Position numbers and translations under genes: made by a program
In this document: one piece after another, positions 6,881 through 60,284 of the stretch
How positions within the stretch are numbered: position 1 is the first letter of the stretch
Layout: each line of letters opens with the position of its first letter
From: a virus
DNA length: 64,000 nucleotides
Direction: 5' to 3' (one strand)
Virus record (IMG/VR): IMGVR_UViG_3300045988_056971
Notes under the pieces: model-generated
What the model was told of the DNA's origin: nothing
The model's database searches: none
What the model saw: the letters and a program-made list of their open reading frames with translations, nothing else

Positions 6881-6945
6881 AAATCATTAATTTTTGGTTC
6901 AATCAATTATAGTAATACTCTTTTAATATAAAAACTTAATTTAAG

Positions 6946-9900
6946 TTAAAAACAAAGGAAGAATAACCCAAAACTTCCATCGTTAGTAGATGCATCATCA
7001 GCGGTATTAACATACCAATAATATGTAGACCTAGAACTATAACCACGAATTAAAGTACAATATAACAGAGAATTTGAAGAGTTGCTAGAATTTGATGCAT
7101 TTAAATTTCCGACTGCCCAAACCAATGTAGTATACCATGTCTATCCAGAAGGATAAACAGTTCCTATAGTGTATCTACCAGTATCTCTTCTTGAAGTAGA
7201 GGTTACAAAGTTATAATTCCCTCCATTTTTGGAATATGTAACCGACGTCCCACTGTAGTTATTTATCGTATAAGACGCCCAATATTTTACCATCACCCCG
7301 GTACAAGCGGTTGGAACTCCGCTAGAAAGATATATAGGGGTTCCTGACGAACCAACAGTACTAGTATAGTCGTCAATAGAGTTAGTACCGCTATAATAAG
7401 CTAGTTTGCCAGATGCTCCAGAGTTAACTGTAGCATTTAAGTAATATGTCATAGCAGTAACAGTTCCATTAGTTACATATACTCCTCTATTTGAGGCACC
7501 AGCATTACCCTTGGCGAAGTCCGCTAATGATTTGTAGGAGCCTCCAGCTAACAATACGTAGTTATTACTATTTACTGAACTATGATAAAATCCTCCTGCA
7601 GCAGTTATACTACCTGTATTAAAGAATGATCCTCCACTATTCCATTTAGCAATCCAAGTATATGAATTAGTTCCATTACTAATATTGGTTGCAGAAAATC
7701 CATAAAATCCTAAATCATTTCCTAATCCACCAAAACAAAGAGCATTTCCATTATTGTACTTAGCTCTAAATAAACAATGTGCAGAAGAGGTAGAATTATT
7801 CTAATCTGCGACTATACAATTAGATCTTGTAGCCATAGAAATCCAGCTAGAGCCAGTATAAGGAGCAAGATATCCTGCAGAAGCGTAGAATATTTTGCTA
7901 TTATATACTCTAACATAAGTCGAATCAGTCATATAAATACCACCTCCATATGTTTGGCTATACCATCCTGTACTTCCAGTACTTCTGAACCAGTTTGAAG
8001 TATAAGCAGTACTAAACGTAGGTGAAGTTCTTGAATTAGAGGAAGCTGATACCTTAACATTTGCCCAATAATAATTAGCTGGATCCTTTATATCAGAAGT
8101 ATAGGCTATAGTATACCATGAAGAGAACGATCCCGCAGAAGCATACCTAAAATACATTCTCGTATTATTCGGAAAAGCTAACTATGATACATACTAATTA
8201 GATGTTCCATGTTTGCTTTTAAATAGAGTAATTATCCCATTGGCGTTATCCTATGATACTGGCTTGTTTGAGGCTGAACCTGAGTAAGTGTCATATACTA
8301 ATCTATATCCATCTGATGTCCAACTACTTGGAGAGTTAAGATTACTTATAGAACCATAATATATATAGTTTGCCTTATTAGAATTAGTGGCATAAGGTAC
8401 TGTAATATTATTAGTAGTACCTGCCTTTGTCCATGTAAGATAGTTTCCATTAGTTCCCAATGAAGTAACGTACCTTCCGTCAGCAGTAGTCTAGGTTAAA
8501 ATTAACTTCCAGCTTCCCCAAGCAGAAGAGCTTGTGGATGTTCTCATGTATAAATTTCCACCATCTGTAAATCCTAGCTAATGCGTCTAACCTCCTGAGA
8601 AATCTGTAGTTCCTCCATAAGGCTTAAAGTGTAAGATTCCATGGTAAGTTCCTCCATTACTTAGTCCATCTGTGCTATTATATTTAAATTCAAATCTAGC
8701 TCCGCTAGAGAACTATGCTGGAGTATTATTAGTACTTCTAGTATCATGAGATTGTAAGTACCCAGAATAAGATGAGTATGGGACAGTTAAATTATTAGTT
8801 GTTCCGTTTTTAACCCAAGTCACATATGTACCATTTGTCCCTAGAGATGTAACATATCTAGTATCTCCATACCTATGATAATTATAACTATCTAGAATTA
8901 ATCTCCAACCTCCTGCAAATGTTCCTGTAGCTACCGCCCCATTGACAATCTATCTCATATATAATCCATGAGTAGTTCCCATATTATTAGGTCCAGATAG
9001 AATATCTGTATAGTATGTAGAACCCCAATACATCCTCAAGCACTAACCGTTTTTATAGGCTGCATCCTAACTATCAGAGGGCATTCCCCACTATCCTCCA
9101 GCAGCAGTTCCTCCTACCACAAAGCCTCCAGAGGAGTAATAAGTTAACCCAGTATTCTAAACCGAAGAAGATGAGTTAATTCTTGAAGATGCAGTAGCGT
9201 ATGGGACTGTTAGATTGTTAACTACTCCATTCTTAGTCCACGTTAAGTAATTTCCACTTGTACCTAAAGCAGTGACGAAATTAGCAGGATTAATGTAGGC
9301 GGTATAATTAGAGGAATCCAATATTTTTTTCCATCCTCCACTAAGAGTAGTAGCTATTCTCCAATATAGTCCAGTAGAAGTATTAGAAGACATTAATATC
9401 TACCCATACCATCCAGACGCTGTCTACATAGTAAATACTCCAAATGCATCTACTCCACTAGGCTTATCTGCAACAGAATTACTGCCACCAGCGTGATATA
9501 AATATCCGGGAGTAGTTTTGTTAGCAAGAGTATCACTTATTGTATGAGATAGTATTCTATTAGCTGTAGCAGCATTACCAGTAATTGAGATTCCCCAAGT
9601 ACCGCTTGCACCTCCACCGGTTTTAGTTACAGTATAATTAGTATAATTTCTGTGAGTTAATACTCTAGTCCAAGCAGAAGTATAACCACTTCCGTTGCTT
9701 GTATAGAATAACATTTCATTAGCAGCAGGATTACTTACTCCTGAGTTATTATGTGGAGTTATATATAACTACGTCTTATTCGTATCACTAGCTCCCCACT
9801 AGAATATAGCTGTTCCCGCCAATGGAATATTTACACCAGTATCTGTAGATACATATCCATTATTAGCGTAAGCCCAAGAACCTCGTTCAGCAAATGCTAC

Positions 9901-11394
9901 AAATGCCTTATTAACAAATGTAGAAGAATATGTATCAGCTGTATAAGCTGTTCCAGAAGAGCCGTGGTTGGCAGTTTTATTACCTCCTACATATCTTCCA
10001 TCAATAGAGCCAAACTAGTAGGTAGTAGTGATAGTTACATTCTAACTACCATTAACAGAAGCACTACCAGTAACTGCACCAGATAGACTAATAGTTCGCG
10101 CAGTACCCCAATAAGCTGTTACTATATTAGCAGTTCCATCAAATGATGTTCCATTGATGGTTCTTGCAGTCTATAGTTTGGTTGCTGTTGCCGCATTGCC
10201 TGTAATAGAAACTCCAAGAGTCGTACTACAGGCTGTTGGTGTACCTGCATTTAGGTATATAGGAAGAGTTGCAGAACCTTTTGTAGCCGTTCCAATCTTT
10301 AAAACTATTCCAGTATAGTTAGCACTATCTACAATAGTTTTCCATGACTTTGTATTCAAAGTTGAGTCTGTACTATTTCTCCAATACAAACTTCCAGAAT
10401 ACATAGAGTAGAACTGCATATATCTAGTACTTCCACTTCCAGTATTGAATTGAACAAGATGTCCAGATGCTCCAGGATAAGTTACATTCCAATTACCACT
10501 TAGGTTATTATTGCTAGATAACTCAGTTGTAGTTGGAATAGAACTTGCTATAGTCTAACTTCCCCTAGCTCTAAAGAATGAAGTTTCATGTAACCCGTCT
10601 AATAGGTCAGAATTAAGATTCGTGACTACCGTCTTACTAGTCACTTTTAGGGGAGCAGTTCCATCAGCTATATTTGAAATTAGCTAAGTTCCAGTTATTG
10701 AAGCCTTGACTATCAGAGGGCCAGTCATAGTATCTCCAGTAACATTTACATAGCGTTCATCTGATTCTGTCTTTGTATAATAATTTTCAGCAATAGCAAC
10801 AGCCTTTCCGTCTAACCTGAGAACTCCTTTACCTATAAATAAACCTACAGTTCCGCCCCACGGGTCTGTACTAGTAGGATATGGAAGAATACAAATAGAA
10901 CCAGTTCCATCTCCTCCAGTATTATGCTGCCCAATAGATGGGTTATAAGTTCCCTAAGATGTTCCTCCTTTTAACCATTTAACAACTGTCGTATAATTGC
11001 TTGTACTATTCTAATTCTAAGTAATAGTAGCATTATTAGCTAGAATAGGACCAGTAGAAAATGTTTTCACCCCAGTAATGGTCTAAGCTGTATCTAGGGT
11101 TACAAACTTGTTATCTATAATTGAATAAAATTGAGTCTTACTTATTCTCCTGATAAATGTATCAGAAGTATTTCTCACATATACGGAACCAATATCTGTT
11201 AATGCTTCATCTGAAATTGCAGAGTTAAAGTAGGTAGCGTATATATGCTAGCTAGCATTTCTCTAGACAAGTGTATTGGCTTTGGTTTCAGAAGAGAGCT
11301 CTAGATTTCCTCCATTACTAAGAAGAACTTGTGTGGCACTTCCTTGATATGTGGTTCCTATAAGCTTACCATATCCATCTTTAACCTTTATCAT
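6946..11394 (-). CDS. long tail fibre protein (~1480 aa), Ser/Thr/Gly/Asn/Tyr-rich, with many in-frame TAG
   Basis: Six ORF fragments (7141-10419) share frame 0 and each ends in TAG. Manual read-through runs from ATG 11394 to TAA 6946. Fibre-like motifs are present (YVNVTGDTMTGPLIVKA; NSDLLDGLHETSFFRARG). Confidence 0.6.
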
Positions 11395-12830
11395 ATTATT
11401 CTCTTAAATTTAAATGTATAAGTGTAAGCCTTTCCAATACCAGAACTTGCACCTATCTATAATTTTAAAACTCCAGAACTCTGCATAACAGTTCTTAAGT
11501 AGATTGTTTTTCCATATGCATGACCAGAGCGATGTAATATAATTTCATCTGTCTCTGTATCATTAGTACCATCTTTGTACCAACTCATTACACCAGAACT
11601 GTAGCAATTGTACATAGTCCCAGTGCTATCATTAGCATTAACTTGAACCTATACTATATAGGTACCATTTGCAGGAAGATTTGTGGAAGTAATACCAGTA
11701 TCCATCCATGCCTGTGTGACATTTAATGATTTTGTGATAGTGGTAAGGTTGTTAGACAGCTCATCAGTTTTTAACATAAAGTCTGATACTAATTTGTGTC
11801 CCCCACCTCCTAGTAGCACATATGAATCAGAAGAACCATTTTTATAATATCCATTAGCGTGTAAAATCCCGTTATCATATATTTGTAATATATTATTCCA
11901 CGAGGTTCCAGTATTAGTAGACTGCTAAAAGTTAAAAACAGAAGTATTAGCTGTGGAATCATCTGTTATAGATATCCTCTACTAATAAGTTCCATTATTC
12001 CAATGAATACTCTGAGTTCCATTAAACTGTATATTAGAGCCAAAAGTTTTAGTTCCCGTAATAGTCTAAGATGTATTTAGAGTAACATAGTTAGCTAATG
12101 ATTGATGTTCTGTAAGAACGGGCTTTCCACCTGAATATAATTTATTAGCCCACAGACTACCAGTACTAGGTTGTGCATATATAGTAGTAGTAGTATAAAC
12201 CTACTGAGTAACATTAGCACTTAAATCAGAAGGAGTATTTGTATTGGTATAACCTAGGATTACAGGTCTAAAATTTGCAGTAGTAGTAGCAGACTATAAC
12301 ACTTTCTAGTCAGTATTTTGGTCTGTATACCATCTAACCCAGGTCTTCCAAGCAGTAGAGTCATAATATCTAAACCATATTATACCGCTAGAAGTAATTA
12401 ATTTCTAGTAACGATAACCACTAGCATTTCTACCAACATATAACTCAAATGCATCTACACCACTGGGTTTGTTAGTTACACTATTACCTCCACCAGCATA
12501 GTACCATTTTCCTTCATCTAAGTAATCATCTAGATCTTGATTAGTCAACTATGTATAAATGAATGCCGCAGCCGCAGGTATGGACCAGGTGCCATCTTCC
12601 CTTAAAAATCTAATATTAGTTGCAGTATATGAGGGAACAGGCACCAATCCGTTATAACCTCCACTTCCAGCAGAAGTATGTTTCTTAAATACTGAGTAGG
12701 TAGTATCTGTTCCCTTGAATTTCTCCCCTCTAACGAATATATTTAAGCCCCTAAGGTCGAAAGTTATATCATTGTTCGCGGGAGCAGTTGTGAGAGCTGC
12801 AGCCGTTTTAGGATTGTATGCTATCTTCAT
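11391..12830 (-). CDS. tail fibre-like protein (~479 aa), TAG-containing; ATGA overlap with downstream fibre gene
   Basis: Frame 2 runs from ATG 12830 to TGA 11393-11391. No ORF of 60 aa or more appears on the track because of dense TAG. Confidence 0.45.
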
Positions 12831-22737: not shown

Positions 22738-22969
22738 TCAATTATTTTTCCATGAATCATCTTTTAACCAAGGTCTGTCTTGTAGCCAAGTTCCGCTACC
22801 AAAACAGCTTCTAACAGCATCGTATACGGTAAGCCAGACTAACTACGACCCTTTATATATAGCTCCAATGTTCTTTTGTACTCTTTGCTAAACTTGTTCT
22901 ACAAGTTCTAGAATATCTTTTTGGACCTGTAATATTAACTTACCATTTCTATATATCATAATTTAGCAA
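22738..22969 (-). CDS. small hypothetical protein (76 aa), 2 in-frame TAG
   Basis: Manual translation MIYRNGKLILQVQKDILELVEQV(Q)QRV… with a TGA stop. Confidence 0.35.
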
Positions 22970-23333
22970 AATCTTCCTTGACTTTAGCTTTTATCTATTT
23001 TAATATGTTAAGATATTCCTTATATTCATTAATACCTTCAGAATCAGAAGTAAGATTTTCTGAATAGCTATTATATGAATTGATTAAATCAAATTCTTCA
23101 TCAACTGTAAGGAATCTTCTAACTATAGCTTTTACACAATCTTTGTAATTAGGCTGCCCATTTAATAATACCTAGATAAAACTATAGTAAGTTTTTTCTT
23201 TTATGGTATTGTCTAAATCAAGTACTTCAACACTAATTTCTTTTATATCATAGTTATAGTAATAAGTACCGTTCCCAAGTTTTTGGATTGTCTAAGGATA
23301 AACGTCCATTTGTATTCTATTCGGCTCTAACAT
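22966..23333 (-). CDS. small hypothetical protein (122 aa) overlapping the 3' end of the RT gene out of frame; possible DGR accessory gene
   Basis: A frame-2 ORF from ATG 23333 to TGA 22968-22966 (2 TAG). ATGA overlap with the next gene. Confidence 0.35.
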
Positions 23334-24546
23334 AAGGTGTTATTTTAAAATTTATAGGAAATTTGTATCTAAGCAAAGAATAGTGTAATCTCCTATTCTT
23401 ACTTTTAAAATAGTAGGGTTTATTGTTATACATGAAATGTACTCGAAAATGATTGTCATAATCAACAACCTCTACAATGTGAATATATTTATTATAAAAC
23501 TTAGATATGTTAACTTCTTTTCCATTCCAGTTAGAGAATTTCAATCCAGTTAACTCCTCTACCTTTCTCAGCAAGTTCTTAGAGTTGCAAAATTTCATCC
23601 ATCCAAAATAAGACCTCATTCTTCTATTCAATTCATCTTTATCAATCTTATTCTATTTATATAGATTTATAAGCCTAAACATCCTCATTTTTATAGATTT
23701 TCTCAGTAGAACATGAGTATGATAGAATTTATAGCCTACGAAATCAATACCTCTGCTTTCTACAGGGAATATTTGATAATTAGGCTTCAACTCTAGGTTA
23801 AGAACCTGTTTCAAATATAGTTTTATAGATACTAATACATTTCTCAAATAATTCTTGTCATTACCAAGAATCACAATATCGTCAGCATATCGAAAGTAGT
23901 ACTTACATTTTAACTCCTCTTTTACCCAGTGGTCAAAATATGTCAGATATAAATTTGCAAAGAATTGTGATAGATAATTTCCAATAGGAACTCCCTTCGC
24001 TGAATAAATTATTTCTTTCAACAGTTTTAATAGTTTTTTATCCTTTATCTTTCTCTATAACATTTCGTATAAAATGTCGTGAGTTATAGAAGGATAGAAT
24101 TTTTTTATATCCATTTTCAAGCAATACTTTGTTTCTTCTGGATGTTTCTATAACACCTTAAACAAATCATACTCTACTTTATGAATACCTCTATTTCGTA
24201 TAGAGGAATATGTTTGGTCTATAAATATACTAGTCCAAATAGGCTCCATAATATTCATTATAGCATGGTGAGTTATTCTATCTGGATAGTATGGAAGTCT
24301 AAAGATTAATCTTTCTTTAGGTTCGTATATTATAAAGGTACTATATTCAGAGGTTTGATAAATCAAATCCCTTAACTTATCGGATAATTCCTTATTTTCT
24401 TTTAATCTATTCTTATCATGCTGCTTGATTCCACATCTAATAGACTTATTTCTTCTAGCTTTATCGTCAGCTAGTTCGATGTTATCTTCAGCGTATACTT
24501 TCTCGTGCAAATATCCTACACGTTTCAATTTTTTTATATATTTCAT
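23254..24546 (-). CDS. DGR reverse transcriptase (~430 aa) containing 4 in-frame TAG codons
   Basis: Three same-frame ORF fragments. Joining them across TAG restores RT motifs: ERLIFRLPYYPDRITHHAIMNIMEPI (motifs 1/2), CLKMDIKKFYPSITHD (motif 3), GVPIGNYLSQFFANLYL (motif 4), YADDIVILG (motif 5/YxDD). A TR/VR pair sits immediately upstream. Confidence 0.85.
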
Positions 24547-24686
24547 CGGAAGCGTTCGAGAATTAACCTACTAACACCCTTCATTCAACACTACGTTATC
24601 TTTTGCCTAGAGGCAAGGATATTACTTAGCAAACTAAAAAAAATAATAAAATGTTTCTAAATATATAATAACTCGACATTGGAATT

Positions 24687-24780
24687 GGCATTGCTGACGT
24701 CATTGTTAGAATTGAAATAGCTGAGACCTGCATTGCTGCCATTATTCGCGTTGCTGCCTACTAGCAGTACTTTTTTGCCA
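24687..24780 (-). repeat. DGR template repeat (TR)
   Basis: About 94 nt aligns to VR1 and VR2. Every mismatch sits at an adenine of this copy on the minus (RT-sense) strand. It lies between the target gene and the RT. Confidence 0.8.
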
Positions 24781-24845
24781 ATCAACGGTTTTTAGAAGTA
24801 ATATCCTACGATTTATCATCTAAATCGATTTTTATATTGTATATC

Positions 24846-26663
24846 TTAAGATACTCTATTCAGAGTCCTGAACCCGACAAGGGAAGAGGCATGGCCGACG
24901 TCAAAGCTAGAAAAGAAATAGCCGAGACCCGCAGTGCCGCCAGTAATCGCGCGGCCGCCCACCAGCAGCGTGCGAAGCGCTGTGCTGCTTGCGTTGCAGT
25001 AATGGTAATCGCAAATATAAGTAGTAGCACTTCCTCCAACAGCGGATGGAATTATTTCAGCGGTTTCACCTAAGTCAAATGCCTTAATATAACCATCAGA
25101 TGCTACTTCGTATCCTGCAACGGTTTTCTCTCCAACTACGTCGGTAAATTCCGATACGTTAGTAGTTGTATAGACAGTGCTAATCTCATTAGCAGCTGCC
25201 CTCACTATAACTACTCCGTCCAGGTTAGTCCAAATGTCTCCAAACGGATTATCGAACCCTCTCCAGCGAGGTACCTTAAATGTATGAGTTGCTACTGTAC
25301 TTGTGCCATCTTGAGCTGTACATTCTGGAATAACTAAATCTTTTACTCCAGTGAAGTTACCAAATTCATTGCAGTAACCACAAGGCGTAAGTGGATATGT
25401 TGCATTATATCCTGACCAACTTGTAGCTGCGTTAGCCCAATCTGTAACTCCAGGTCCTAAACCTCCTTGATGATATCCATCCGCAGTTAACTCTGCATTA
25501 TATGCAGCCTAAGAATTAAAATTAGCATATTCAATGACATAATTCCAGTAGAATATCCATTTGTAATATTCATAGCATAGCAATTCTGAACCAGCATTTG
25601 TTGCATATGTTCTCATAGTAGCTCTAGAAATATTAGTTCTAGGCTTTCCTAAATCACTTCTGAATATATCCTTAGTTTCTAATTCTGTAGTTAGATAATC
25701 ATCGTAGTTAGCTCTATTTCCTCCACCTCTAAATGCAGTAGTAGTATTAACTACTGATACAGCTTTTGGAGTTGCGGAGACTGTGGTATCAACTGTACTT
25801 CTGTATGCATCTATTAATAGTTCAGGAATTTCTACCCATGAATCATCAATTTTGACAGTAGAAGTTCTAACCCATCTTTTGTTTCCATCGCTGCCAGATT
25901 TTCCATAAAATTTAGGAGTATTAACTCTTACTGTTCCATCAGTTCCATCTAAGACAGATGGAGTTTCTCCGTCTTCTTTATAAGACCAGTCATCTGGAAA
26001 CAGATAGTAATTTACTACATCATTGTTTGCTACACAACCTCTATACGCTGATTGAATAGGAAGAGATTTATGCAGCAAAGGATTACCTATTCTAGTAAGT
26101 TCCGGAGATGCTACTGTAACATCCCATTCTACTCCATAGGAATATAAATCCATATTACTATTTAGCTCAGTAATCTACTTATCAAGCTTTTGTTGTGCCT
26201 TCTACAATTCTTCCCAAGCCTCATTTAGCGCTGTAAATTGCTCTTCTAGCTTAGAACTTGAATCTGCCCATTCAGCAGTACCATCTGCTGAGAAAACTAG
26301 CATCTATCCAGATGCTCCTCCAGATGGAATATGTTTATTTCCAGAAGTAGTTGGATGTACATAATTATTAGCATTATTAGCTATAGTACTTAACTTTTCC
26401 TTCTCAGTTTCAGTATAATTGGCTTCAGAAAGTCCCTTTCCTAACTCCTTATCTACTTTGCCTTCAAGCTCACCCTTAGTAGCTAATTCACTAATATCCT
26501 AATGCTCAGTTAAATATCCACTATCATTCTGTAACTAAGAAGTTTTAGTTGGAATTGCATTAGCCTTGGCATATGTCGTATCTATAACATTTCCAGCACC
26601 ATCGTAAGTAGCTTTTAAATCGTATGTGGTTTCCCCAACCTTTATAGATTTGATTGCTGCCAT
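24846..26663 (-). CDS. DGR target: tail fibre protein (~605 aa) with a C-terminal C-type-lectin-like variable region; several in-frame TAG
   Basis: ORFs 25509-26153 and 24846-25205 share frame 2. Manual extension reaches ATG 26663. The C-terminus …LLVGGRAITGGTAGLGYFFSSFDVGHASSLVGFRTLNRVS ends in the GFR motif typical of DGR variable regions. The N-terminus has fibre repeats. Confidence 0.7.
24888..24975 (-). repeat. DGR variable repeat 1 (VR1), GC-enriched relative to TR
   Basis: It aligns base-for-base with the TR. More than 30 differences all fall at TR adenines (A to G/C/T). Confidence 0.85.
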
Positions 26664-31249: not shown

Positions 31250-34030
31250 ACCTGCTTGTCTTATTCGTCTAGACATGAAGACGGAAGTAAATGATAAACT
31301 AATATCTTGAGGATAATCTGTCCAGATATAAGAATATCCATCTGGGGTAGGAGGTAGTTTATCTAGTCCAGAAGAAGGCTGACCATTCCAATAGTAGTTA
31401 TAGTCATATGCCTTTAGAGAAGTAACTTCTGTAGTTTCTTTCCCTTCAGCATCTATATACAGCGGATTTCCGTCCTCATCTGTTTTCTATTTATATTCTA
31501 TAACTGGTGTTATTCCCTCGGTTCTAGTATATATAGTCTATATAATAGTAGAGACATCACTCGCTACTATTTCATAGATAGTAGTTCCCTATGATTCATC
31601 AGCTCCCTAAAAAGTAAATTTAGTTCTTTTCCATATATACGGATTCTCTTCTGTTGGAAGCTCAAAAGTATCAGACCACTACTTACTTGATAATTTTATT
31701 TCAGATTCATCGGCAGTATTAGCAGGGAGATAATGTATTTTAATAATAATACTATTAACTGCTTCACTTGAACCGGATAAATCTGATACCTACTTAAATA
31801 ATTTTTTTAGGTCGTCTTCTACATTTGATTTAGAACCGGAAGCATTACTTATAATTACTGTCCCATCAGAGATAGGATAAATCTACTGCTAATCTTTGTT
31901 GTATACAATTGTTCCAGTTGCCATATTAATGTATTTGTCTTATTTTGTCATTATATGGATTTCCATCATGAAGCTAAGCCAACTCTATTTCAGTTCTTTT
32001 TTCTTCAATATCCATTTGTCTATCTTTATAAGTAGAATCAGACTGAGCTTTAAGCCAGTTAACTTTATATTCTAACTGCATCTTCTACTATTCTAATCCT
32101 AGTCTCTATTCATCTAAGCTTTCAATCTTTTGCTGAGCTTTCTATAATTCTTGCTATAACTACTGAGCCTATTGAGAAGTTTCTTCTAATTTTTCTTGTA
32201 GTTGCTGAAGCTGATTATTTTCCTCTTTGCGAACTTGAACAGCTTTCTTAACCTTATATTTAAGGTCTGTTAGACTCTTAGATGTAAGAGCCTCAAAAAT
32301 AATATCTGGGTCCATCTGTTGACTTTTTACGAACTCTGGAATGATTGCTTTTATAGTCTATAGATCTTCCATCACTTCTGAACTAGCAGTAATATGAATA
32401 TCGTAGTCAGTAACAGTAAAATACTCAGGAAGTGCGGTGAATATCTGTTGATATTTATCCCCAAGTATAATAGTTCCAGTTAATCCTTTCTTATAAGTAA
32501 CTTTAGCCTAATTAAGACTATCTAGTAGTATCTCGCAGGTTATTAAATCCATCTGCTAAAAATAGTGCTTAGTTACTATATACGAGTTAGCTACTCCCTA
32601 CTTAATATTAGTAACTGCATCTCTAGTTTCTATACCGTTAAGTCGTTCCCTAAATACTCCAGTTATTGATGATGTAGTTTGTTCTACTGATTGAATAGCT
32701 AATTCAATAGCCTATACAGCCTATGCTTTTAAGGTATCATCAAATCCGTTATATATCTAGTTTGGAGCTTGCTGTCCATCATTCCTACCTTCTTGGCTTG
32801 AGTCTATCCACATGATACCACCTTTTTTATAGGCTAACCATTTTTGTACTCGTTCTGGCCATTTAACTCCTAAGTTGGTAGGCAACAGAGACATATCCAT
32901 AATAACTCCGGCAGTACCACTATTAGCTATTAGATTATCTCTATAATAGTTTAATAAGTCGTATCTATCCTACAGATGTGCACATTTTAATATAAGAGAA
33001 TAAGGCTACTAAGAGCGATTTAAGAAATATACTCCATTTACCGATAAAGAACAGAAGTTGGGATTATCTTTAGACCTCATAACAGTCTTGTCTAATCCTC
33101 TAAGAATATATATCTCTTCTCCTATTCTGATAGTATTGTATCTCTACATCACAAAATCATCATCTGTTTCAATCCATTCAACATCATAGACTGGGATTAA
33201 CTAGAACCTATGAGCACTATATTCATTGTCTGGATAGCCGGGAATGGTTTCATGATTCTAATCTTCATTTACTACTGTACAAGTATCTCCATATACTCTT
33301 CTATAAACAGCAGCTGAATCATCAGCTCGCCATTCATCTTTTAGTCTTCTTAAATCTTCTCTAGATATTTCTTTGCCATATTTAGCTAAAATCTAACTCT
33401 TACTCATCCACTTTCTTACTACAACTCTATATGAGTTCCTTACATATGGAGATTCTGGATTTCTATCAACAAATGTATTAAGTGGGTTTAATACCTCTAT
33501 TTCAATATTAGTTCCAGAAGCCGATGATTTCACTCTAAAGAATGTATAACCAGTAATTAATAAGTCTGTTAGTAACTAACGTAACTTAGTAATTAAATCG
33601 GTTTCTCTGGATTGCATAATATAATGTACTATATTCTAAGCTGCAATTTCATATTGAGAAATAAAGGATTGGTCAATATCCTATATAATTTTATCTAACT
33701 AAGTCTTTACAGCTTTATCAGTAATATCCTTGCCATCAATAAACTTAAGAATTGAATTACTTAAATGGTCTTTCAAAAACTTTACTATTCCCTTGGTTAT
33801 TTCTAGCTATTTTTCTCTTGTTATATTACTGATAGTATCTGAATCTTTGCAAGAAATTTTCGGAAGTATAGGAGTTCCTAAATATTCTCCAACTAGAGCA
33901 TCTACGTGTTTCTTTAATAAAGGCGTAAACTCTACCGAAGTGGGGCTACCTATTCCGAAATTTTCTTCCAGATAACGGAACTATTCAGGATCTCTTTTAC
34001 CATTATAATAATTATAAGCTTTCTGTAACT
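31250..34030 (-). CDS. unresolved TAG-dense late genes (position relative to the terminase suggests portal/capsid candidates)
   Basis: The track shows no minus-strand ORF of 60 aa or more, despite continuous coding-like composition and frequent cta triplets. Confidence 0.25.
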
Positions 34031-34038
34031 CATACTTA

Positions 34039-34500
34039 TCATATACAAGTTCCGCAATAGCCTCGTTTGTCTTGTCTATCAATTCCTTCTCTTTCATAAC
34101 ATAAATTATGTTGTTCTGGAGGAAGTTTAGTAGCGTTATAATACTTAACTCTTTGTAACTTCCTACTTCTTAATTCTTCCTTAATAAATGGCAGAAATTC
34201 TTCGTCTGGTAAATCTGCTATTATTACTAATGGCATTTCTGACCTATCAAAGTTAAAAGAGACTTTATACCCAACTGGGTCTAAACTCTCAATATCTAGT
34301 CCGCCTATATACTCCATTTTGTACAAGTCCCTCATATATTCTAGGATCACTTGTTTCAACTCTGTATGGGTCATCATATTCGTTTCTTTGCATATTAAGT
34401 TCAGGAGTTTTCTTAGTTGGAATAACTCCAAATCTTTTAATTCCTCTCTCGTCGTAATAGTAACCAAAATCTTGGAACTATTCAACTTCTTTCTCCACAA
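34039..34500 (-). CDS. hypothetical protein (about 153 aa; start uncertain, possibly TTG)
   Basis: ORF with a TGA stop. The listed start corresponds to TTG, and an in-frame stop lies 14 codons upstream. Confidence 0.4.
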   Translation of the reverse strand: MWRKKLNSSKILVTITTREELKDLELFQLRKLLNLICKETNMMTHTELKQVILEYMRDLYKMEYIGGLDIESLDPVGYKVSFNFDRSEMPLVIIADLPDEEFLPFIKEELRSRKLQRVKYYNATKLPPEQHNLCYEREGIDRQDKRGYCGTCI

Positions 34501-34666
34501 GTACGGGCTGTCTTCCTGATAGCTCTTGGTCTGCTAACTCAGTCATACCTACAGCGGCTACAATATCATACTTACCCTTATTTTCATCATTATATGCAGT
34601 GAACTATTCTAGCATTTCTTCGAACCATATAGTATGGCAATAGTCTTCTATAAAGGCGGCTGTTAA

Positions 34667-36652
34667 ATCAGTATGCTATTCGATTATAGTTTTTGTAGCA
34701 GGAGTTCCATACTATTTAGTAGTTCCATTTCTAACGTCAGTTAGAGTAGCTCTTGGGCGCTTCATAAAATAGTTAAGGCATCCTTTTTCTCTAGCCCAAG
34801 TAACCATACCCATACGAGTAGCTTCTATATTTATTTTACAATTATAATAGCGAGCTAAACACATAGCTATTTTATAGGCTTCTCTGATGTCTCCAGGTCT
34901 ATCCTTGTACATAGCAACATACTGAGGGTCATTCATACCAAACGCACGTTTCTTAATCGTTATGCAGAAATCAGACGGGTCTCTGGTTTCCTTAGAAGTC
35001 TAATTCGCTCCAATATCAATACCGTCTATACCTGCTACGTATAAGTCTCGCATCTCTTTATAAACTGGAACTTCAAAATCCTAGCCGTTATCTTCTGCCT
35101 CCTATCTAAGCTTTTCCATTTGTTCTTTATATAAGTCAGACCATATTGGATGCTCTAGAATTTTTACTTTACCATTGCTATTAGGAATCCATTTAAAACC
35201 ATCAATGTTATCCTAAGTATGTTTATTATTTTTGTAAAAATAATCAATATAACCACATTCGGGTCTTGGACCAATTTGTTTAAGTCTTATATTAGCTATC
35301 TATTCGGCAACTAAAATTTTATTAAACTTATTAACACCTTCTAGATTAAATGCTTCTTCTGCATTCCAACAACGTTCAGCACATTTCTTTAGGTAGTCTT
35401 CTGGTACAGCTAACAGATTATCTCGCTCCTCCTATAAGAATTTCTTATATTCTACAGTATTACACACTCCTCTGTGGTCCATAAATTCTGGATTCAAAGA
35501 TTGTATAAAGTATGGAATAAAGAATCCACTCTCTATAGTAGTCCCATCCTAAGTCCAATTATGTCTAAATGGAAGAATCTTATATGCTCTTGGATTATAG
35601 TAAATCTTTTTTAAGCCCTCTAGAGGAGCACCCATATCACCGCCAGTACCTCCAAACAACATTGTTCCACGAGGCATACCTTGAACTTCACAAAGTTCTT
35701 GACCTTGTACCACAGCGGTATCAAGTCCAGGCCAGGAACCAGCTTCATCATATATTAATAAATCTACACGGTCTCCACGAATGTTAGATGGTTTAGCTCC
35801 GTTAATTGCCACAACCTCAGATTTAAATCCTACGTCTTCAAACTAACCATTTATTTTGATTTGTTTACCTGATTTCTTTCTCAAATCCTGGTCAATAAGT
35901 CGCAATTTAAAAAATCCTCCTCCAGTACAGGTATTTAAGAATGTAAGAGCATTGTCAAACTTACTAAAGGTACCCTTAAGGAAGGTATCATTAAAGCAAG
36001 TAATCATAACCCTACTTCTTCTAATAACAGAGTACATACGAGCAGAAAGAGAGGCGTTTATTTCAGAGAATCCAATAGAACGAGCTTTCATTAAAGCTGC
36101 GTGCTTGTGTAGCACTCTAGCCATCTATAGATAATGAAAGAACATATAATGTGATGCAAAGAATATTGGGAAGTCATTATCAGTACCCTCACCAGAGGCT
36201 TTCTACTAGTCAATAGTAGGTAACTAATAGAAATTTAAGAAGAAGTAATTATCTCCAGTAATGGTGTACCCATTAACTGTCATTCCATACTTACATCTTC
36301 TATATTGCTCTTTCCAAAATTCGTTGTACCGCTTACTATCTCTAAGGTAGGGACAGTATTGACCAGTTCTTTTATATACTTCCCTAGTCTCGGTAAACCA
36401 ATCTGGATTAAAGTCCAATCCATGAGTTTCGTCAATAGGTCTGTATCCAGTTATTTCATAAGATAAGGTAGGGTCAAATACTTCTATTTTATCTCCTATT
36501 TTAACATCCCAATAGTCAGAATTTCTGACCCTTTCCTCTCTTATTTTCCATACTAATTCTCTAGCTTCTTTAGCATCCTCTTTCTATTCTTTTTCTCTTA
36601 CCTAATCTACAATATTCTATATTTCTTCAGGTAATATCTTTTTTCTTGGCAT
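34667..36652 (-). CDS. terL: terminase large subunit (661 aa), about 10 in-frame TAG
   Basis: Five ORF fragments share frame 1. Read-through runs from ATG 36652 (AGGAGA RBS) to TGA 34667. It has a Walker A-like motif (LMKARSIGFS), a Walker B motif (DLLIYDEAGSW) and a C-terminal nuclease-like region. Confidence 0.6.
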
Positions 36653-36664
36653 AATTAAAAGTCT

Positions 36665-37218
36665 CCTGGGTCAAAACCATCCACAGCCCCAGCTCTAACA
36701 GTAGATTGTTCAGTAAGTTCTTTCTTAACCTAGTCTTCTAGTGTTATGAGTTCTTCATGAACTTTGTGAAGGGTAGCCATTTCCTTCATTACTTTTTCAG
36801 CCTGGAATACTGGTTTGCCGTTATTATCACGCTCATTTAAATCTACAATAGTTTCGAAATAATCAATAAACTAGTCTGCAGCTCTTTTAGCTGCTTCTAG
36901 TAATTTTATTGACTTGTTTGAATCTTGTAACGCTCTGTATTTCCTACAAGCTTCTCTAAATATAGGGTCATTAAATTCCGACTCTGTCAATCCAGAATCG
37001 CTAATAGCTTCGTCATGTCGTTCATGTTCCGAATACTAACTGTATGGACTTTTCCAGTCTATAGCTAAATAAATGTAAGATAGTTCTCTAGTAGCTCTAT
37101 CCTTTTCTGCAGATTTATCCCTCTAGATTAAAGCCTTAAATTCCTTAACTAGCAATATCTCTGGTTCATTTATTTCTAGCTATTTAGTTAAAGTGTTATA
37201 GTTAAATACATTCATAAT
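36665..37218 (-). CDS. hypothetical protein upstream of terL (possible small terminase subunit), about 184 aa, 3 TAG
   Basis: Manual translation MNVFNYNTLTK(Q)LEINEPEILLVKEFKAL…; the call rests on position only. Confidence 0.3.
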
Positions 37219-42210: not shown

Positions 42211-42227
42211 AACTATTAATTTTGGCG

Positions 42228-42299
42228 TTGCCCTACTAGGATTCGAACCCAGACTAAATGATTTAGAGTCATCTGTGCTGACCATTACACCATAGGGCA
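42228..42299 (-). tRNA. amber suppressor tRNA, anticodon CUA (reads UAG); body resembles tRNA-Gln
   Basis: Hand-folded cloverleaf: acceptor tgcccta/tagggca, anticodon stem gatga/tcatt, loop ctCTAaa, T-arm ctgggTTCGAATcctag. The D-arm tggtgtaatggtcagcac is nearly identical to the tRNA-Gln(TTG) D-arm at 55397-55468 (tggtgtaatggtagtcac). Confidence 0.8.
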
Positions 42300-44584: not shown

Positions 44585-44651
44585 TCCCTACTGGTATAAT
44601 GGATTGCGTCTCCCGCTGGAGAAGATTCTGGTTCAAGTCCAGAGTAGGGAA
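44585..44651 (+). pseudogene. tRNA-like element (acceptor and T-arm intact, anticodon loop only 4 nt): degenerate tRNA or att-like remnant
   Basis: tccctac…tctggTTCAAGTccaga gtaggga a pairs as acceptor plus T-arm. The anticodon stem tctcc/ggaga encloses only cgct. Confidence 0.3.
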
Positions 44652-44907
44652 CTACTAAGTTGCAGTATTCATATTATTGTCGGACCATAATGGGTATGCC
44701 CTGAGACTATGCAGTTGTTGTGAAATAACTCAAAGTATTGTGGCACAGGAAGGTCTAGTCGTCACTTTGCTTATTTTATTAATTTTCATTTTGACTAAAA
44801 GGCACAGCGGTGCCTCTACTCCTAAGATAAGAACAACCTTTACGTGGTTTAGGAGATAAGTAAGCTATTCAAGCTGAAACTAATAGTTCTAGTAATAATT
44901 AATAAAA

Positions 44908-56841: not shown

Positions 56842-57290
56842 TGTGGTCAAGAGAAAGTCCAATGAAAGAATATGCCAGGAAACATCCTGGCTGTTCTCTT
56901 CAAGAGTATTGTGAATACTTAGATAATATTGCTAGAGAGGAAGCAGAAAGAAGGAGACTAAAAGAAGAAGAAAATAATCAACTTCTAAAAAGTTTTGAGG
57001 GAAAATGCTTTCAAATAAACTTCAATAGACAATCATTTGGTTATTTCAAGATAACTAAAGATATTACTGCCCTTAGAGAAGATGTTAAAGAAGATTTCTA
57101 TGAAGTTTTCATAGATAGCAATACAACTAGAATAAGTCTTGAAAAGAAGAGAATGATAAATCGTCAATGGCTTCCTGGGCAGGGAAGTGAAAAGTGTACA
57201 ATAGTTCCTGAAGAATTGTTCAATAAGGTAGTCAAGTATTATCAAGAGATGTGTACTATGGCTGAGAAAATAAGAGACGGGGAATTGTAA
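56841..57290 (+). CDS. hypothetical protein (149 aa)
   Basis: Intact ORF. Confidence 0.5.
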   Translation: MWSRESPMKEYARKHPGCSLQEYCEYLDNIAREEAERRRLKEEENNQLLKSFEGKCFQINFNRQSFGYFKITKDITALREDVKEDFYEVFIDSNTTRISLEKKRMINRQWLPGQGSEKCTIVPEELFNKVVKYYQEMCTMAEKIRDGEL

Positions 57291-57294
57291 CCTT

Positions 57295-57376
57295 GGGGTA
57301 GTGGCGGAATTGGTAGACGCGCTAGACTTAGGATCTAGTACAGAAATGTGTGAGGGTTCGAGTCCCTCCTACCCTA
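57295..57376 (+). tRNA. tRNA-Leu (anticodon TAG, decodes CUA), type II
   Basis: Acceptor ggggtag/ctaccct, long D-loop, anticodon arm ctaga-ctTAGga-tctag, long variable arm, T-arm gagggTTCGAGTccctc. Confidence 0.75.
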
Positions 57377-57607
57377 CAACTTTTATTCGATTATAGATTA
57401 TGAAAGAGTTAAGTGAAATTATCCAAGAATTGGTAGACAGTAGCAATTCCATGAATCAAATTGATTCAAAAACTGCTATACGGTATGTTGTGGAGGCTTA
57501 CGAAGCTGGAATGGATAAGGCTAAAGAACTTATCAAAGACAGTGGAGAACTTTAATTAACTGAATGTTCTGAAACATTCATATTAAATAACAATTAAAAA
57601 TAAAGAA

Positions 57608-58792
57608 ATGAACAAAGTTTGGATGTGTTCCGGGTCTACATACACCCAAGTAGGCTCAGGTTACAAGGTTTCGGAATCTCTTCCGGTTGGTATTTACAGT
57701 ATTAGTCTGACAATGACAGGTTATCACCTGGATAAGTATGCAGACAAGTTCGTATTTCCGTACAAGATGTATGGACTGCAGGAAGATTTCATAGACCATG
57801 TAATCAAAACTTATAATAACACAGAAGGAAACTTGGGAATCATGTTTACTGGTACAAAAGGTACTGGAAAGACTGTCACAGCTAAAGAATTAGCTAATAA
57901 GTTGAACCTTCCTGTTATTATCGTAAAGGATATGGGAGACCATAATCAATCTATGATTGAGTTTCTCTCTGGTATTGAGGGAGACTGTGTTCTCTTCCTA
58001 GATGAGTTTGAAAAGAACTTCAGCGAGTCGGATTCTACAATCCTCCAAATTATGGATGGAGTTTATAACTCTAAGTATCGTAAGGTATTCTTGTTGACTA
58101 CTAATGCAATGTCTATCAACGAGAATATGGTAGGACGTCCGTCTAGAATCCGCTACGTCAAGAAGTTTGAAAATCTTGATTTGAAGGTTGTAAACGAATA
58201 TCTAGACGATGCCCTGGAGGTTCCAGAAGCACGTCAAGATTTACTTGACTTCATTGATTCTTTGACTATATCAACTATTGATATTCTCAAAACTATAGTT
58301 AATGAAGTTAACATTCATGGAATTGAAGGTTTGAAAAAGGCTAAGAGTTTCTTCAACGTAGTAACTAATGAGTATGAGTATTCTTGTATCAGAGGTTACG
58401 CTTACACTGGAGAAATTGAACAAGACAAGAATAAGTTCTCTATTGAAAACTTCTCCAAGGCTGTTGAGAGATTTAATAATCCTATACCTAAGCCTATTGT
58501 TGATGACGAGGATAACTGTACTATAGAGGAAAGAAAAGCCCTCAACGAATACTATGAGTATCGTCGTCATAACTTCCACAGCCTGTCGTATAACTTTATC
58601 TATTCTTCTACCAAGTTCAGCAATCTTAAGGTAGGAGACGACTTCTACAATGACGAGATTATCGCTATTGACAAGAAGTTGAATGTTATTGTTACTAAGG
58701 ACGGTGGCGAAATTAACTACTGGTGGATTAAAGATCCTAACAGTAAACCATCTCTGTATCGTACAGGAAGATACGATTCTTTGGTACTTTAA
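57608..58792 (+). CDS. AAA+ family ATPase (394 aa)
   Basis: Walker A GIMFTGTKGTGKT and Walker B VLFLDEFEK. Confidence 0.65.
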   Translation: MNKVWMCSGSTYTQVGSGYKVSESLPVGIYSISLTMTGYHLDKYADKFVFPYKMYGLQEDFIDHVIKTYNNTEGNLGIMFTGTKGTGKTVTAKELANKLNLPVIIVKDMGDHNQSMIEFLSGIEGDCVLFLDEFEKNFSESDSTILQIMDGVYNSKYRKVFLLTTNAMSINENMVGRPSRIRYVKKFENLDLKVVNEYLDDALEVPEARQDLLDFIDSLTISTIDILKTIVNEVNIHGIEGLKKAKSFFNVVTNEYEYSCIRGYAYTGEIEQDKNKFSIENFSKAVERFNNPIPKPIVDDEDNCTIEERKALNEYYEYRRHNFHSLSYNFIYSSTKFSNLKVGDDFYNDEIIAIDKKLNVIVTKDGGEINYWWIKDPNSKPSLYRTGRYDSLVL

Positions 58793-58819
58793 AAACTGGG
58801 GAGCTAGTCTCCCCTTTAT

Positions 58820-58893
58820 GTCTGGATGCCTGAGTGGTCTAAGGGAACGGTCTGCAAAACCGTGTTTCGTGGGTTCGAATCCCACTCCAGATT
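58820..58893 (+). tRNA. tRNA-Cys (anticodon GCA), U73 discriminator
   Basis: Acceptor gtctgga/tccagat, anticodon arm acggt-ctGCAaa-accgt, T-arm gtgggTTCGAATcccac. The spurious minus ORF 58271-58885 overlaps it. Confidence 0.7.
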
Positions 58894-58913
58894 CTACACT
58901 AATTTATTTGCCT

Positions 58914-59342: not shown

Positions 59343-59704
59343 TTATGGATAAATATATTAATGGAAATCTAATAAAGAGGATACTAGTTTTTAAAACTAG
59401 AAAACATCCAGAATGGAAGCATAGAATAGCAGATACTAAATTCTTATTCTGGAAAAAACATATTGACTATTGGTATCTTCTAGACCCATGCTTTGGGACT
59501 TACTCTGAGAAAGGGATGCTCGAATCAATTAGTAAGAGAACGTCCTTCTACAAGGATGGAATAGTATACCAGAAGCCGCATATTATTCTAGAGTTCTCTG
59601 AGAGACATGATGAGTCTATCTATTTTGATAGTGATGAGGAAATGGAAGGCTGGCTTGAGTCTTTCAGGCAAGAATTTGGAAAACCATTTATGTATATAGA
59701 ATAA
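59321..59704 (+). CDS. hypothetical protein (127 aa)
   Basis: Intact ORF. Confidence 0.5.
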   Translation: MSRILGLIMDKYINGNLIKRILVFKTRKHPEWKHRIADTKFLFWKKHIDYWYLLDPCFGTYSEKGMLESISKRTSFYKDGIVYQKPHIILEFSERHDESIYFDSDEEMEGWLESFRQEFGKPFMYIE

Positions 59705-60279: not shown

Positions 60280-60284
60280 CATTT

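Follow-up and report, generated by a model that had tools for sequence, protein, structure and literature searches.

A diversity-generating retroelement with a TAG-containing reverse transcriptase gene and two target genes in a crAss-like phage

The window analysed here is the whole 64,000-nucleotide stretch of the IMG/VR virus record IMGVR_UViG_3300045988_056971. On its minus strand, a tail fibre gene (target 1, 26663-24846), a template repeat (TR, 24767-24670) and a reverse transcriptase (RT) gene (24528-23254) follow one another in this order, which is the layout of a diversity-generating retroelement (DGR). From a repeat search and pairwise alignment, we found that the TR (24670..24767, minus strand), a non-coding segment of 98 nt, aligns at an offset of 201 with a variable repeat (VR1; 24871..24968, minus strand), which encodes ...LLVGGRAITGGTAGLGYFFSSFDVGHASSLVG... 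in the C-terminal domain of target 1. The two copies differ at 23 positions, and at every one of them the TR copy has a T on the plus strand, that is, an A on the minus strand. The TR contains 30 adenines, including 10 AAY codons in the VR frame; 23 of these adenines are changed in VR1 and 7 are kept. Arithmetic on these counts gives a chance of ∼(30/98)^23, roughly 1e-12, that all 23 mismatches would coincide with the 30 A positions among the 98. In the reading frame of the TR, A-to-N changes cannot create any stop codon, TAG included.

A first-pass annotation of this DNA had already designated the two segments as template and variable repeats, and the adenine-specific mismatches of the computed alignment bear this assignment out. 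The repeat pair is real, but the bounds given for it (24687-24780 and 24888-24975) need to be moved: the repeats start 17 nt earlier, at 24670 and 24871, and end at 24767 and 24968, beyond which the two copies are unrelated. The mismatches had been put at more than 30, which is instead the count of TR adenines, the actual number being 23; also, VR1 ends 22 nt, rather than about 40 nt, before the TAA stop (24846-24848) of target 1. The GC-rich patch described around VR1 was observed as well, GC being 0.53–0.62 at 24850-25050 compared with about 0.30–0.40 in the surroundings.

The RT gene (23254..24528, minus strand) encodes 424 amino acids from a conserved TTG start at 24528 to a TAA stop. The slightly longer ORF 23254-24546 has exactly four in-frame TAG codons, the number reported earlier, located at 24148-24150, 24055-24057, 23653-23655 and 23317-23319 (codons 133, 164, 298 and 410), and the standard code splits the RT into four ORFs. 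When translated through the TAG codons, the protein matches Pfam RVT_1 (1e-19) and phrog_1423 (1e-112). Among PDB entries it is closest to 8ub7 (E 4.9e-45 over residues 49-335), which we take to be Brt, the DGR RT of Bordetella phage BPP-1; the group II intron and retron RTs in PDB were far behind (1e-14 to 1e-16). The RT is thus of the DGR type. The signature of the DGR clade, YxDD together with [I/L/V]GxxxSQ in motif 4, is present in both its parts, with IGNYLSQ at residues 188-194 and YADD at residue 220. As TAG133 precedes all the catalytic motifs, this RT can be made only if TAG is translated, in agreement with the earlier proposal. The core of that interpretation, namely the TR/VR pair, the DGR-type RT and the need of this RT for TAG translation, is therefore supported.

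Next, we compared the RT gene with those of the relatives, by which we mean related IMG/VR contigs having 81–99.5% genome identity. It was intact in all the 17 relatives that cover it fully, with no TAA or TGA and no frameshift downstream of the TTG. Codon differences among them comprised 486 synonymous and 216 non-synonymous changes; the RT is under purifying selection in these 17 relatives.

The TAG codons are not confined to the RT gene. Terminase has 19 and portal 28 of them, and in these as in the tail genes TAG makes up 46–54% of the Gln-like codons. Target 1 has 6 in frame, and taking TAG as a sense codon triples the ORF coverage, from 16.3 to 50.7 kb, while none of the plus-strand genes contains any. 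ARAGORN located a suppressor tRNA gene with a CTA anticodon (42227..42299, minus strand), outside the recoded block, whose product is needed to translate both the RT and target 1. This tRNA is closest to the phage's own tRNA-Gln(TTG), with 51 of 73 positions shared. Eleven RT codon positions have TAG in at least one genome, and at 8 of them it alternates with CAA/CAG; one of these, codon 194, the Gln of the IGNYLSQ motif, is TAG in 7 relatives. A C-terminal motif, ...PKTWERYLLL, lying beyond TAG410, is conserved in distant homologs. Because of the CTA tRNA, the TAG/CAA/CAG swaps in relatives and the conserved motif past TAG410, we concluded that TAG is a glutamine codon in this phage, as judged from its sequence.

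The start of the RT gene deserves a separate description. An upstream ATG at 24546 would give an RT of 430 amino acids; it is in frame because the poly-A run between this ATG and the TTG (24529..24535, minus strand) has seven A residues in the window. The length of this run varies between genomes: A7 is found in the window and in two relatives, L017 and L018, A6 in 18 contigs and A5 in 4. In the A6 variant, the ATG opens a 6-codon uORF whose TGA overlaps the TTG (TTGA). In 22 of 25 genomes the run has six or five A residues, which makes TTG 24528, and not ATG 24546, the probable start of the RT.

The TR–RT spacer (24529-24669) holds a segment (24532..24620, minus strand) including an invariant hairpin, CCUUGCCUCUAGGCAAAAG, that resembles the Rfam family RT-17 (RF03020). 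The score, 28.7 bits (E 8e-4 to 2.5e-3), is below the gathering score of 40.4, so that we describe this segment as RT-17-like in sequence, hairpin and position only, and not as a member of the family. RT-17 itself scores 38.6 bits in the crAss-like phage cr7_1, at the same relative position between target and RT. Across the relatives the spacer diverges by 1.9%, the RT gene by 4.7% and the target gene by 10%. MFE folds of the spacer were no better than those of shuffled sequences. In BPP-1, the TR–RT spacer is structured and holds the motif RT-10 (PMC5737381).

We also looked for elements that could guide target recognition. No clear IMH/IMH* pair was found at the TR/VR 3′ end, where the homology simply stops after GTCG(A/G)G. 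All 59 VR copies have G in place of the last TR adenine (in GTCGAG), which could be an IMH/IMH* difference or could come from selection for Gly. Four nucleotides downstream of VR1, the centroid fold contains a small hairpin, ACTCT-GAAT-AGAGT (24853..24866, minus strand; 5-bp stem, 4-nt loop), which we consider a candidate target-recognition hairpin. Its stem is kept in all relatives and its loop varies (GAAT, AAAT, AAAC); as it sits inside the last codons of target 1, the meaning of this conservation is ambiguous. The putative VR2 hairpin, also in coding sequence, is broken in about a third of the relatives.

The cassette had been called a complete DGR. RT, TR and VR are present, but the small ORFs flanking the RT, target 1 and target 2 gave no match to Avd or to the four-helix-bundle or HRDC families in Pfam and PHROGs, in a search that covered the adjacent ORFs only. 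Avd is essential in BPP-1 and common in DGRs, and is not part of their minimal definition.

Target 1 (24846..26663, minus strand) is a 605-amino-acid tail fibre or tail protein, matching phrog_5302 'tail protein' (1.8e-84), and its translation ends with ...LVGFRTLNRVS, as had been read in the first pass. In an AF2 model of residues 386-605 (pLDDT 73), the C-terminal domain resembles DGR variable proteins having the CLec fold, with TaqVP as the best structural match, and it may be C-type-lectin-like.

We also searched the window with the TR pattern having N at the adenines, for which 0 matches are expected by chance. Apart from VR1, a single match was obtained, 26 kb away and on the opposite strand. 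This second variable repeat (VR2; 51127..51224, plus strand) departs from the TR, outside the adenines, at no more than 3 positions at the edge. Its reading frame is that of VR1, and it corresponds to residues 116-148 of target 2 (50782..51342, plus strand), a 186-amino-acid protein of unknown function, whose gene has no TAG and belongs to a TAG-free plus-strand block among tRNA genes. Target 2 matches phrog_11581 (unknown function; 9e-15), has no match in Pfam or PDB, and belongs to a family with 323 representatives at 50% identity. By hhalign, the two targets share only the 39-amino-acid VR segment. The AF2 model of target 2 had a pLDDT of 40 and was unusable.

We then measured how the repeats vary among the related contigs, counting as close relatives those with 98% identity or more to the window. 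Nearly all related contigs have an unchanged TR, with 30/30 A kept; TR mismatches amount to 0 of 882 positions in close relatives and 12 of 1862 in distant ones. In the close relatives, 124 of 248 A-site cells of VR1 differ (50%), as against 3 of 566 non-A cells (0.5%), the mismatch rate of the RT gene being 0.3%, and the 25 recovered VR1 sequences were all distinct. VR2, found in 39 related contigs, varies at A-sites only. The count was made on the 34 contigs whose VR2 was sufficiently near the TR pattern; these 34 sequences were likewise all distinct, and 3 of their 2074 non-A cells differ. The DGR is active in the population, as its VRs are hypervariable at A-sites and its TR is conserved; as this hypervariation is seen between assemblies, it tells of activity on the evolutionary timescale and not in this particular genome.

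One may ask whether the cassette could be a relic, with the RT a TAG-interrupted pseudogene and the difference between TR and VR a fossil of past activity. The splitting of the RT into four ORFs under the standard code and the lack of Avd among the flanking ORFs would suit such a view. This view is contradicted, however, by the intact RTs of the 17 relatives, with their excess of synonymous changes, and by the VRs, which differ only at A-sites between genomes that are 98–99.5% identical while the TR stays fixed. Moreover, the whole late block reads through TAG, and the only common indel of the RT region, the poly-A run, lies upstream of the TTG start. Taken together, we give a relic hardly any credence. 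If the RT is functional, its TAG codons might still be a dedicated switch, selected so that mutagenic retrohoming would take place only in the late, suppressor-on phase. TAG133 stands ahead of all the catalytic motifs, so that no active RT would arise without suppression; TAG164 is TAG in all 22 relatives, TAG133 and TAG298 are TAG in most, and the suppressor tRNA gene is outside the recoded block. Against this, no neighbouring late gene uses TAG for a smaller share of its Gln-like codons (0.46–0.78) than the RT does (0.40), and from one relative to another the TAG positions change freely to CAA/CAG and back, as neutral synonymous use predicts. We therefore consider such a switch unlikely. The dependence of the RT on suppression looks like a by-product of its place in the recoded late module and not like an RT-specific device. 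The link to the late, suppressor-on phase, which the first-pass annotation had emphasized, is reasonable to suppose, but it is not specific to the RT.

The poly-A run raises another question, namely whether the RT is phase-variable, slippage at 24529-24535 toggling the frame of ATG 24546 so that only the minority of A7 genomes make RT. The run lengths do differ (A7 in 3 genomes, A6 in 18, A5 in 4), and the three A7 genomes have 90%, 98.5% and 100% identity to the window, so that the change seems to have happened repeatedly. However, the N-terminal MKR(I/V)GYLHE of homologous RTs lines up precisely with the TTG, past the run, and both the ATG and the run fall within the RT-17-like RNA match. 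The VRs of A6 and A5 genomes are as diversified as those of A7 genomes, the A5 state is common to one sub-lineage, and homopolymer miscalls in the assemblies are a possible source of the length differences. We regard phase variation as quite improbable.

We favour, with a probability of about 0.9, the reading that this is a functional DGR of a crAss-like gut phage of roughly 185–190 kb, in which TAG means glutamine in the structural (late) block and one TR serves two rewritten genes. In this functional DGR, minus-strand transcription would produce an RNA in which the 98-nt TR is followed by the RT-17-like spacer, and the RT would be made only when the CTA-anticodon tRNA-Gln suppresses its four TAG codons. 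The cDNA would then replace the homologous VR, either VR1 in the adjacent tail fibre or VR2 in the remote 186-amino-acid protein. The TR codons (AAY and others) yield no stop, and therefore one template can serve a recoded and an unrecoded gene. The practical effect would be that the RT protein appears only once suppression is on. We infer that the spacer may provide RNA priming, that the element may function independently of Avd and that RT expression may be timed in this way.

To place this element among known systems, we relied on published descriptions. In the 2025 study of Zeta crAss-like phages (PMC12386605), DGRs are described in 18 of 43 genomes, 7 of those having amber-containing RT genes. 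Our phage resembles that group in genome length (about 182–189 kb there, 183–192 kb in the related contigs here) and GC content (about 34.5–34.8% versus 34.9%), and both have a CTA suppressor tRNA and amber suppression; this comparison was made with published traits (PMC12386605). The DGR order is also the same, a tail fibre target, whose C-terminal domain is of the C-type-lectin type there and may be so here, being followed by TR and RT, and so are the GxxxSQ motif and amber codons of the RT and the absence of Avd in most members, Avd being recorded among Zeta phages only for Lera and ct1yV3 (PMC12386605). RTs of the ctoVY1 group are 414 amino acids long according to the same text (PMC12386605), and a 414-aa TPA 'Caudoviricetes sp.' RT is 73% identical to ours. 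With 424 amino acids (430 from the ATG) and about 73–75% identity to the 414-aa RTs, the present RT therefore comes from a different lineage. The best nucleotide matches of the window are crAss-like, and its terminase and portal PHROGs are of the crAss type. Our likening of this phage to the Zeta group is thus indirect, by genome traits (Table 1 of PMC12386605), RT identity and crAss-type genes. The consulted text names only tail fibre targets for the Zeta group, and we found in it no remote second VR in a small non-fibre protein (PMC12386605).

The DGR of BPP-1 (Brt, Avd, TR, Mtd) shares with the present one a homologous RT, adenine-specific TR/VR differences, a VR at the 3′ end of a tail fibre gene, whose product may here too have a CLec-type fold, and a TR placed just upstream of the RT with a spacer between them. 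In contrast to BPP-1, there is no avd between VR and TR or nearby, the spacer resembles RT-17 and not RT-10 (PMC5737381), and the adjacent target is joined by a second, distant one on the opposite strand. A conserved C-terminal extension of ∼95 aa sets this RT apart, as do its in-frame TAG codons, and a GC-rich IMH could not be recognised.

Among other DGRs of Crassvirales, those of cr7_1 (Suoliviridae, Burzaovirus), crAssphage LMMB (PMC7290462) and Epsilon crAss-like phages (PMC11054128) have the same gene order, tail protein, TR and RT, and 65–70% nucleotide identity over RT and target. For the Epsilon target, too, TaqVP is given as the best structural match; the Epsilon RTs have GxxxSP, whereas ours has GxxxSQ (PMC11054128). 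These phages have genomes of about 100 kb or are of other families, and in the portions of the literature consulted no remote second target is reported for them.

Stop-codon-recoded phages are said, in a model ascribed to Borges et al. in 2022, to combine a standard-code early module with a recoded late module. The present phage fits this description with its TAG-free plus-strand tRNA/replication-side genes, its suppressor tRNA outside the recoded block, and a terminase, portal and tail block in which TAG accounts for about one in two Gln-like codons. As compared with such phages, the recoding is ordinary; what is special is only that a DGR RT and one of its targets are inside the recoded block and the second target is outside.

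Amber suppression in DGR RT genes has already been published in 2025 for Zeta crAss-like phages (PMC12386605), and the conceptual gain on this point is modest. The remote second target, a small protein outside the structural module, is apparently undescribed for this phage group. An active DGR in an abundant gut-phage family is here unusually well supported, public assemblies being enough to show two loci that are hypervariable at their A-sites only and a template that does not change. Because the RT is split by TAG and starts at TTG, such cassettes will escape the usual DGR finders and gene callers. The target 2 family is a candidate for experimental study. As a speculation, to which we give low odds, one TR might diversify two proteins that differ in function and in expression programme, a late, recoded tail fibre and a small, probably early and non-structural, protein from the standard-code block that possibly binds variable host molecules in or on the infected cell, for instance as an anti-defence or superinfection factor; the RT output might also be doubly gated, by amber suppression and by the slippage-prone poly-A tract with the uORF before the TTG. 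If true, a single mutagenic template would let the phage evolve a second host-interaction function alongside host recognition.

A repeat search over 22–28 kb returned a single outstanding direct repeat, with copies at 24670-24767 and 24871-24968 (98 nt, spacing 201, 77% identity) and no relation between their flanks beyond the 98-nt limits. From the base-for-base alignment, we observed 23 mismatches, and at every one of them the first copy has a plus-strand T, hence a minus-strand adenine; in the plus-strand reading, C replaces it at 10 positions, A at 7 and G at 6. The first copy, the template repeat (TR), has 30 adenines, of which 23 are changed and 7 kept in the second copy, the variable repeat VR1. 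By simple arithmetic, the chance that all the 23 mismatches fall on adenine positions is ∼(30/98)^23, or roughly 1e-12.

The first-pass annotation had described a diversity-generating retroelement (DGR) here, and this finding is correct, as is its claim of adenine-specific mismatches, which holds for 23/23 positions upon computational alignment. Its repeats, 24687-24780 and 24888-24975, lay on the true ones but were shifted from their limits; its mismatch count (>30) was too high, and VR1 ends 22 nt before the stop codon of its gene instead of ∼40 nt. The GC-rich patch that it had noticed is real (GC of 0.53–0.62 at 24850-25050 against 0.30–0.40 nearby) and coincides with VR1. It had also proposed to look for an IMH or a hairpin at the 3′ end of the VR. 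A hairpin having a 5-bp stem and a 4-nt loop does follow VR1 and is kept in the relatives, although its site is coding sequence; no clear IMH was found.

All the elements of the cassette are on the minus strand. Target 1, a tail-fibre ORF of 605 aa (26663-24846; 6 in-frame TAG codons, TAA stop), carries VR1 near its end, followed by a 103-nt gap, the TR, a spacer of ∼140 nt and the reverse transcriptase (RT) ORF, which runs down to 23254 with 4 in-frame TAG codons and a TAA stop. When translated with TAG as Gln, the RT hits Pfam RVT_1 at 1e-19 and phrog_1423 ('Reverse transcriptase') at 1e-112, and it contains both IGNYLSQ, the DGR signature, and the catalytic motif YADD, so that the RT proposed earlier upon read-through is confirmed. 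Its best match among solved structures is 8ub7 (E 4.9e-45, residues 49-335 aligned), which we take to be Brt from the DGR of Bordetella phage BPP-1. The RTs of group II introns and retrons are also matched, at 1e-14 to 1e-16, and rank behind 8ub7. We rejected both a group II intron and a retron as readings of the locus, given the lack of an intron RNA, the closest match to Brt and the presence of a TR/VR pair. The RT of this DGR is intact in 17/17 relatives covering the gene, with 486 synonymous versus 216 non-synonymous codon differences. A search of the ORFs that flank the RT, target 1 and target 2 (the gene containing the second variable repeat, VR2) yielded no Avd-like gene.

The next ORF, 125 aa long (22956-23333, minus strand) and matching phrog_11557 of unknown function, begins within the sequence for the RT's conserved C-terminal tail, the two sharing 80 nt (23254-23333, minus strand); the overlap has too few varying sites to tell which of the two frames is selected. 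Two of the related IMG/VR contigs, L003 (5497-8163) and L006, have an extra 888-aa gene with 21 TAG codons directly downstream of the DGR cassette, at a point corresponding to 22875-22967 in the window. By eye, its GNND...GHKH motifs look metallophosphoesterase-like.

The first-pass annotation had put the RT gene at 23254-24546, and an ATG lies at 24546. A poly-A run (24529-24535) sits between this ATG and the rest of the gene. It has seven adenines (A7) in the window and in two relatives; 18 genomes have A6 and 4 have A5, which puts the ATG out of frame in 22/25 genomes. In the A6 genomes, it opens a six-codon uORF whose TGA stop overlaps a TTG at 24528. Homologous RTs begin MKR(I/V)GYLHE..., corresponding exactly to this TTG. 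Phase variation of the RT via the poly-A run, whose length does vary, is the less likely explanation. Because the homologs start there and the ATG is mostly out of frame, we placed the probable RT start at TTG 24528, giving a protein of 424 aa.

The region 24532-24620 (minus strand), containing the ATG, matches the Rfam motif RT-17 at 28.7 bits, which is below the gathering score of 40.4; the crAss-like phage cr7_1 reaches 38.6 bits at the equivalent place. Conservation across the locus is highest in the spacer, the TR and the VR–TR gap. Single-sequence folds of the spacer and of the gap were no stabler than shuffles (z-scores of +0.4 and −0.2). A 2-nt deletion inside the RT-17-like element (24562-24563) is common to the most distant relatives (L002, L007, L021, L022 and L025), and in genomes of the L005 type the 3′ side of the second helix carries an uncompensated C-to-A change; therefore, the proposed RT-17-like pairing has no covariation support here. 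Weinberg et al. described motif RT-10 in the TR–RT spacer of BPP-1 and suggested that other DGRs use other RT motifs (PMC5737381). The spacer RNA element is a lead and not a member of RT-17.

Next, we considered the genetic code. When TAG was read as sense, long ORFs summed to 50.7 kb instead of 16.3 kb. The recoded block (∼1–37.8 kb, minus strand) includes the terminase (34289-36670, minus strand), portal (31926-34169, minus strand) and tail genes, and TAG makes up 46–54% of its Gln-like codons, with 78% in one gene. The latter, at 6946-11403 (minus strand), encodes 1485 aa and looks by eye like a tail fibre; it has 29 TAG versus 8 CAA + CAG codons, where its neighbours have ∼50% TAG. Every plus-strand gene at 45–64 kb and the minus-strand genes at 38–40 kb have zero TAG. 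A tRNA with the anticodon CTA (42227-42299) most closely resembles the phage's own tRNA-Gln(TTG). On the plus strand, small ORFs free of TAG are interspersed with ∼20 tRNA genes (47953-61957), and the tRNA set includes two each of tRNA-Tyr, tRNA-Cys, tRNA-Met and tRNA-Gly. An ARAGORN call at 44585-44652 has an odd 2-nt anticodon loop.

Across the relatives, TAG mainly swaps with CAA/CAG, at 8/11 of the RT codon positions having TAG in any genome and also at many positions of target 1; at RT codon 194, the Gln of IGNYLSQ, the window has CAA and seven relatives have TAG. As the in-frame TAGs are read as Gln, the RT needs suppression. The last of them, TAG410, could be taken for the true stop of the RT, which is ruled out by the C-terminal motif ...LSLDNPKTWERYLLL that follows it; this motif recurs in RTs that are only 59–78% identical, and its conservation in such distant homologs indicates that TAG410 is read through. 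The share of TAG in the RT (0.40) does not exceed that in the neighbouring genes. The earlier idea of an RT gated by suppression is thus plausible as a consequence of late-module recoding, but there is no sign of RT-specific selection: dependence on suppression is a property of the whole late module and not an RT-specific device.

We scanned IMG/VR with the TR pattern in which every adenine was replaced by N, and this returned 28 loci, 81–99.5% identical to the window and mostly in contigs of 180–192 kb. In almost all of them the TR is identical, with 30/30 adenines kept, and every VR1 is different. We computed mismatch rates over the nine contigs sharing ≥98% identity with the window. VR1 had mismatches at 124/248 (50%) of the positions that are adenine in the TR (A-sites) and at 3/566 (0.5%) of the non-A sites, the TR at 0/882 (0%), the RT gene at 24/7753 (0.3%) and the rest of the target 1 gene at 103/11110 (0.9%). 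This comparison between assemblies is evidence for continuing adenine mutagenesis at the population level, and the DGR element is clearly functional.

The same pattern, for which 0 chance matches are expected in the window, has a second match there at 51127-51224 (plus strand) with three edge mismatches only. This is VR2. Relaxed scans of the window gave no further VRs, the next best match having 35/68 mismatches. Across 39 related contigs, VR2 varies solely at TR-adenine positions, and in the 34 contigs close enough to the TR pattern to be counted, 34/34 copies are distinct and only 3/2074 non-A cells differ. VR1 differs from VR2 within one genome, and therefore the two arose by independent retrohoming events. 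The VR2 counterpart of the hairpin following VR1 is broken in about one-third of the relatives.

When VR1 and VR2 were pooled, the bases at A-sites were G 0.44, A 0.29, T 0.18 and C 0.09. AGC codons are almost always GGC in the VRs, a bias that reflects scaffold selection. In the VRs, the sites of TR adenines 6 and 9 nearly always hold G, though any base there would be synonymous. At VR1 position 5 (24964, minus strand), a recurrent non-adenine difference at the 5′ edge, CTGCT to CTGCG, was seen in eight contigs (L002, L007, L008, L010, L011, L016, L019 and L021). These observations suggest that cDNA integration usually has its 5′ boundary downstream of VR1 position 5 and of TR adenines 6 and 9. 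A few copies are irregular: the TR of L005 (1209-1306) has 6 A-to-N changes in its 3′ third, the repeat copy of L012 (143-240) is VR-like at the 5′ end and TR-like thereafter, L015 has a TR copy with 2 A-to-G changes, the TR of L018 has a 1-nt insertion and the VR1 of L004 has a 19-nt insertion (region ∼6890-6990). Such copies may have arisen as TR/VR chimeras during assembly, or they may reflect genuine damage or conversion.

VR2 is in frame in a 186-aa ORF (50782-51342, plus strand) without TAG, which lies among the tRNA genes in the TAG-free block. In the VR frame, A-to-N changes of the TR cannot create a stop codon, TAG included, and therefore one template can serve both a recoded and an unrecoded gene. 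By hhalign, the VR2 protein and the tail fibre have only the 39-residue VR segment in common. The sole family match of the VR2 protein is phrog_11581 (function unknown); its family consists of small proteins (∼180–220 aa) with 323 representatives at 50% identity. We found no Pfam or PDB relative of this protein, no homolog in the GenBank phage collection by tblastn, and no shared domain among 65 diverse family members in a Pfam scan. Pfam and NCBIfam searches revealed no lectin, FGE or DUF1566 domain in target 1 or target 2, and PDB profile searches with the target 1 C-terminal alignment and both VR2-family alignments gave nothing meaningful. An AF2 model of the VR2 protein failed (pLDDT 40; shallow alignment, 85–96% identity). 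The ORF directly upstream (50207-50671, plus strand) is paralogous to the N-terminal half of the VR2 protein (97.8% probability in hhalign); its own C-terminal half differs, and it lacks the VR scaffold.

By megablast, no close genome relative is present in the GenBank phage collection. The nearest GenBank phages by nucleotide are all crAss-like, among them cr7_1 (Suoliviridae) and crAssphage LMMB, and are 65–70% identical over the RT and target. A 2025 study on Zeta crAss-like phages reports DGRs in 18/43 genomes (PMC12386605). By indirect comparison, the traits of its ctoVY1, cthgQ11 and 3717_85572 group match the window phage: genomes of 182–189 kb, GC of 34.5–34.8%, a CTA suppressor, amber suppression and a DGR; the RTs of that group are given as 414 aa long (PMC12386605). 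A 414-aa RT from a TPA 'Caudoviricetes sp.' record is 73% identical to the window RT, and therefore the window phage is of a related but distinct lineage. DGRs of other Crassvirales with TaqVP-like targets have likewise been described (PMC7290462, PMC11054128). The DGR of the window belongs to a known, recently described kind. In the passages searched on the ctoVY1/Zeta group, we found no description of a small non-fibre protein carrying a remote second VR, of a variable poly-A run with a TTG start or of an RT-17-like spacer. What remains most interesting is the second target of this DGR, a small protein of unknown function.
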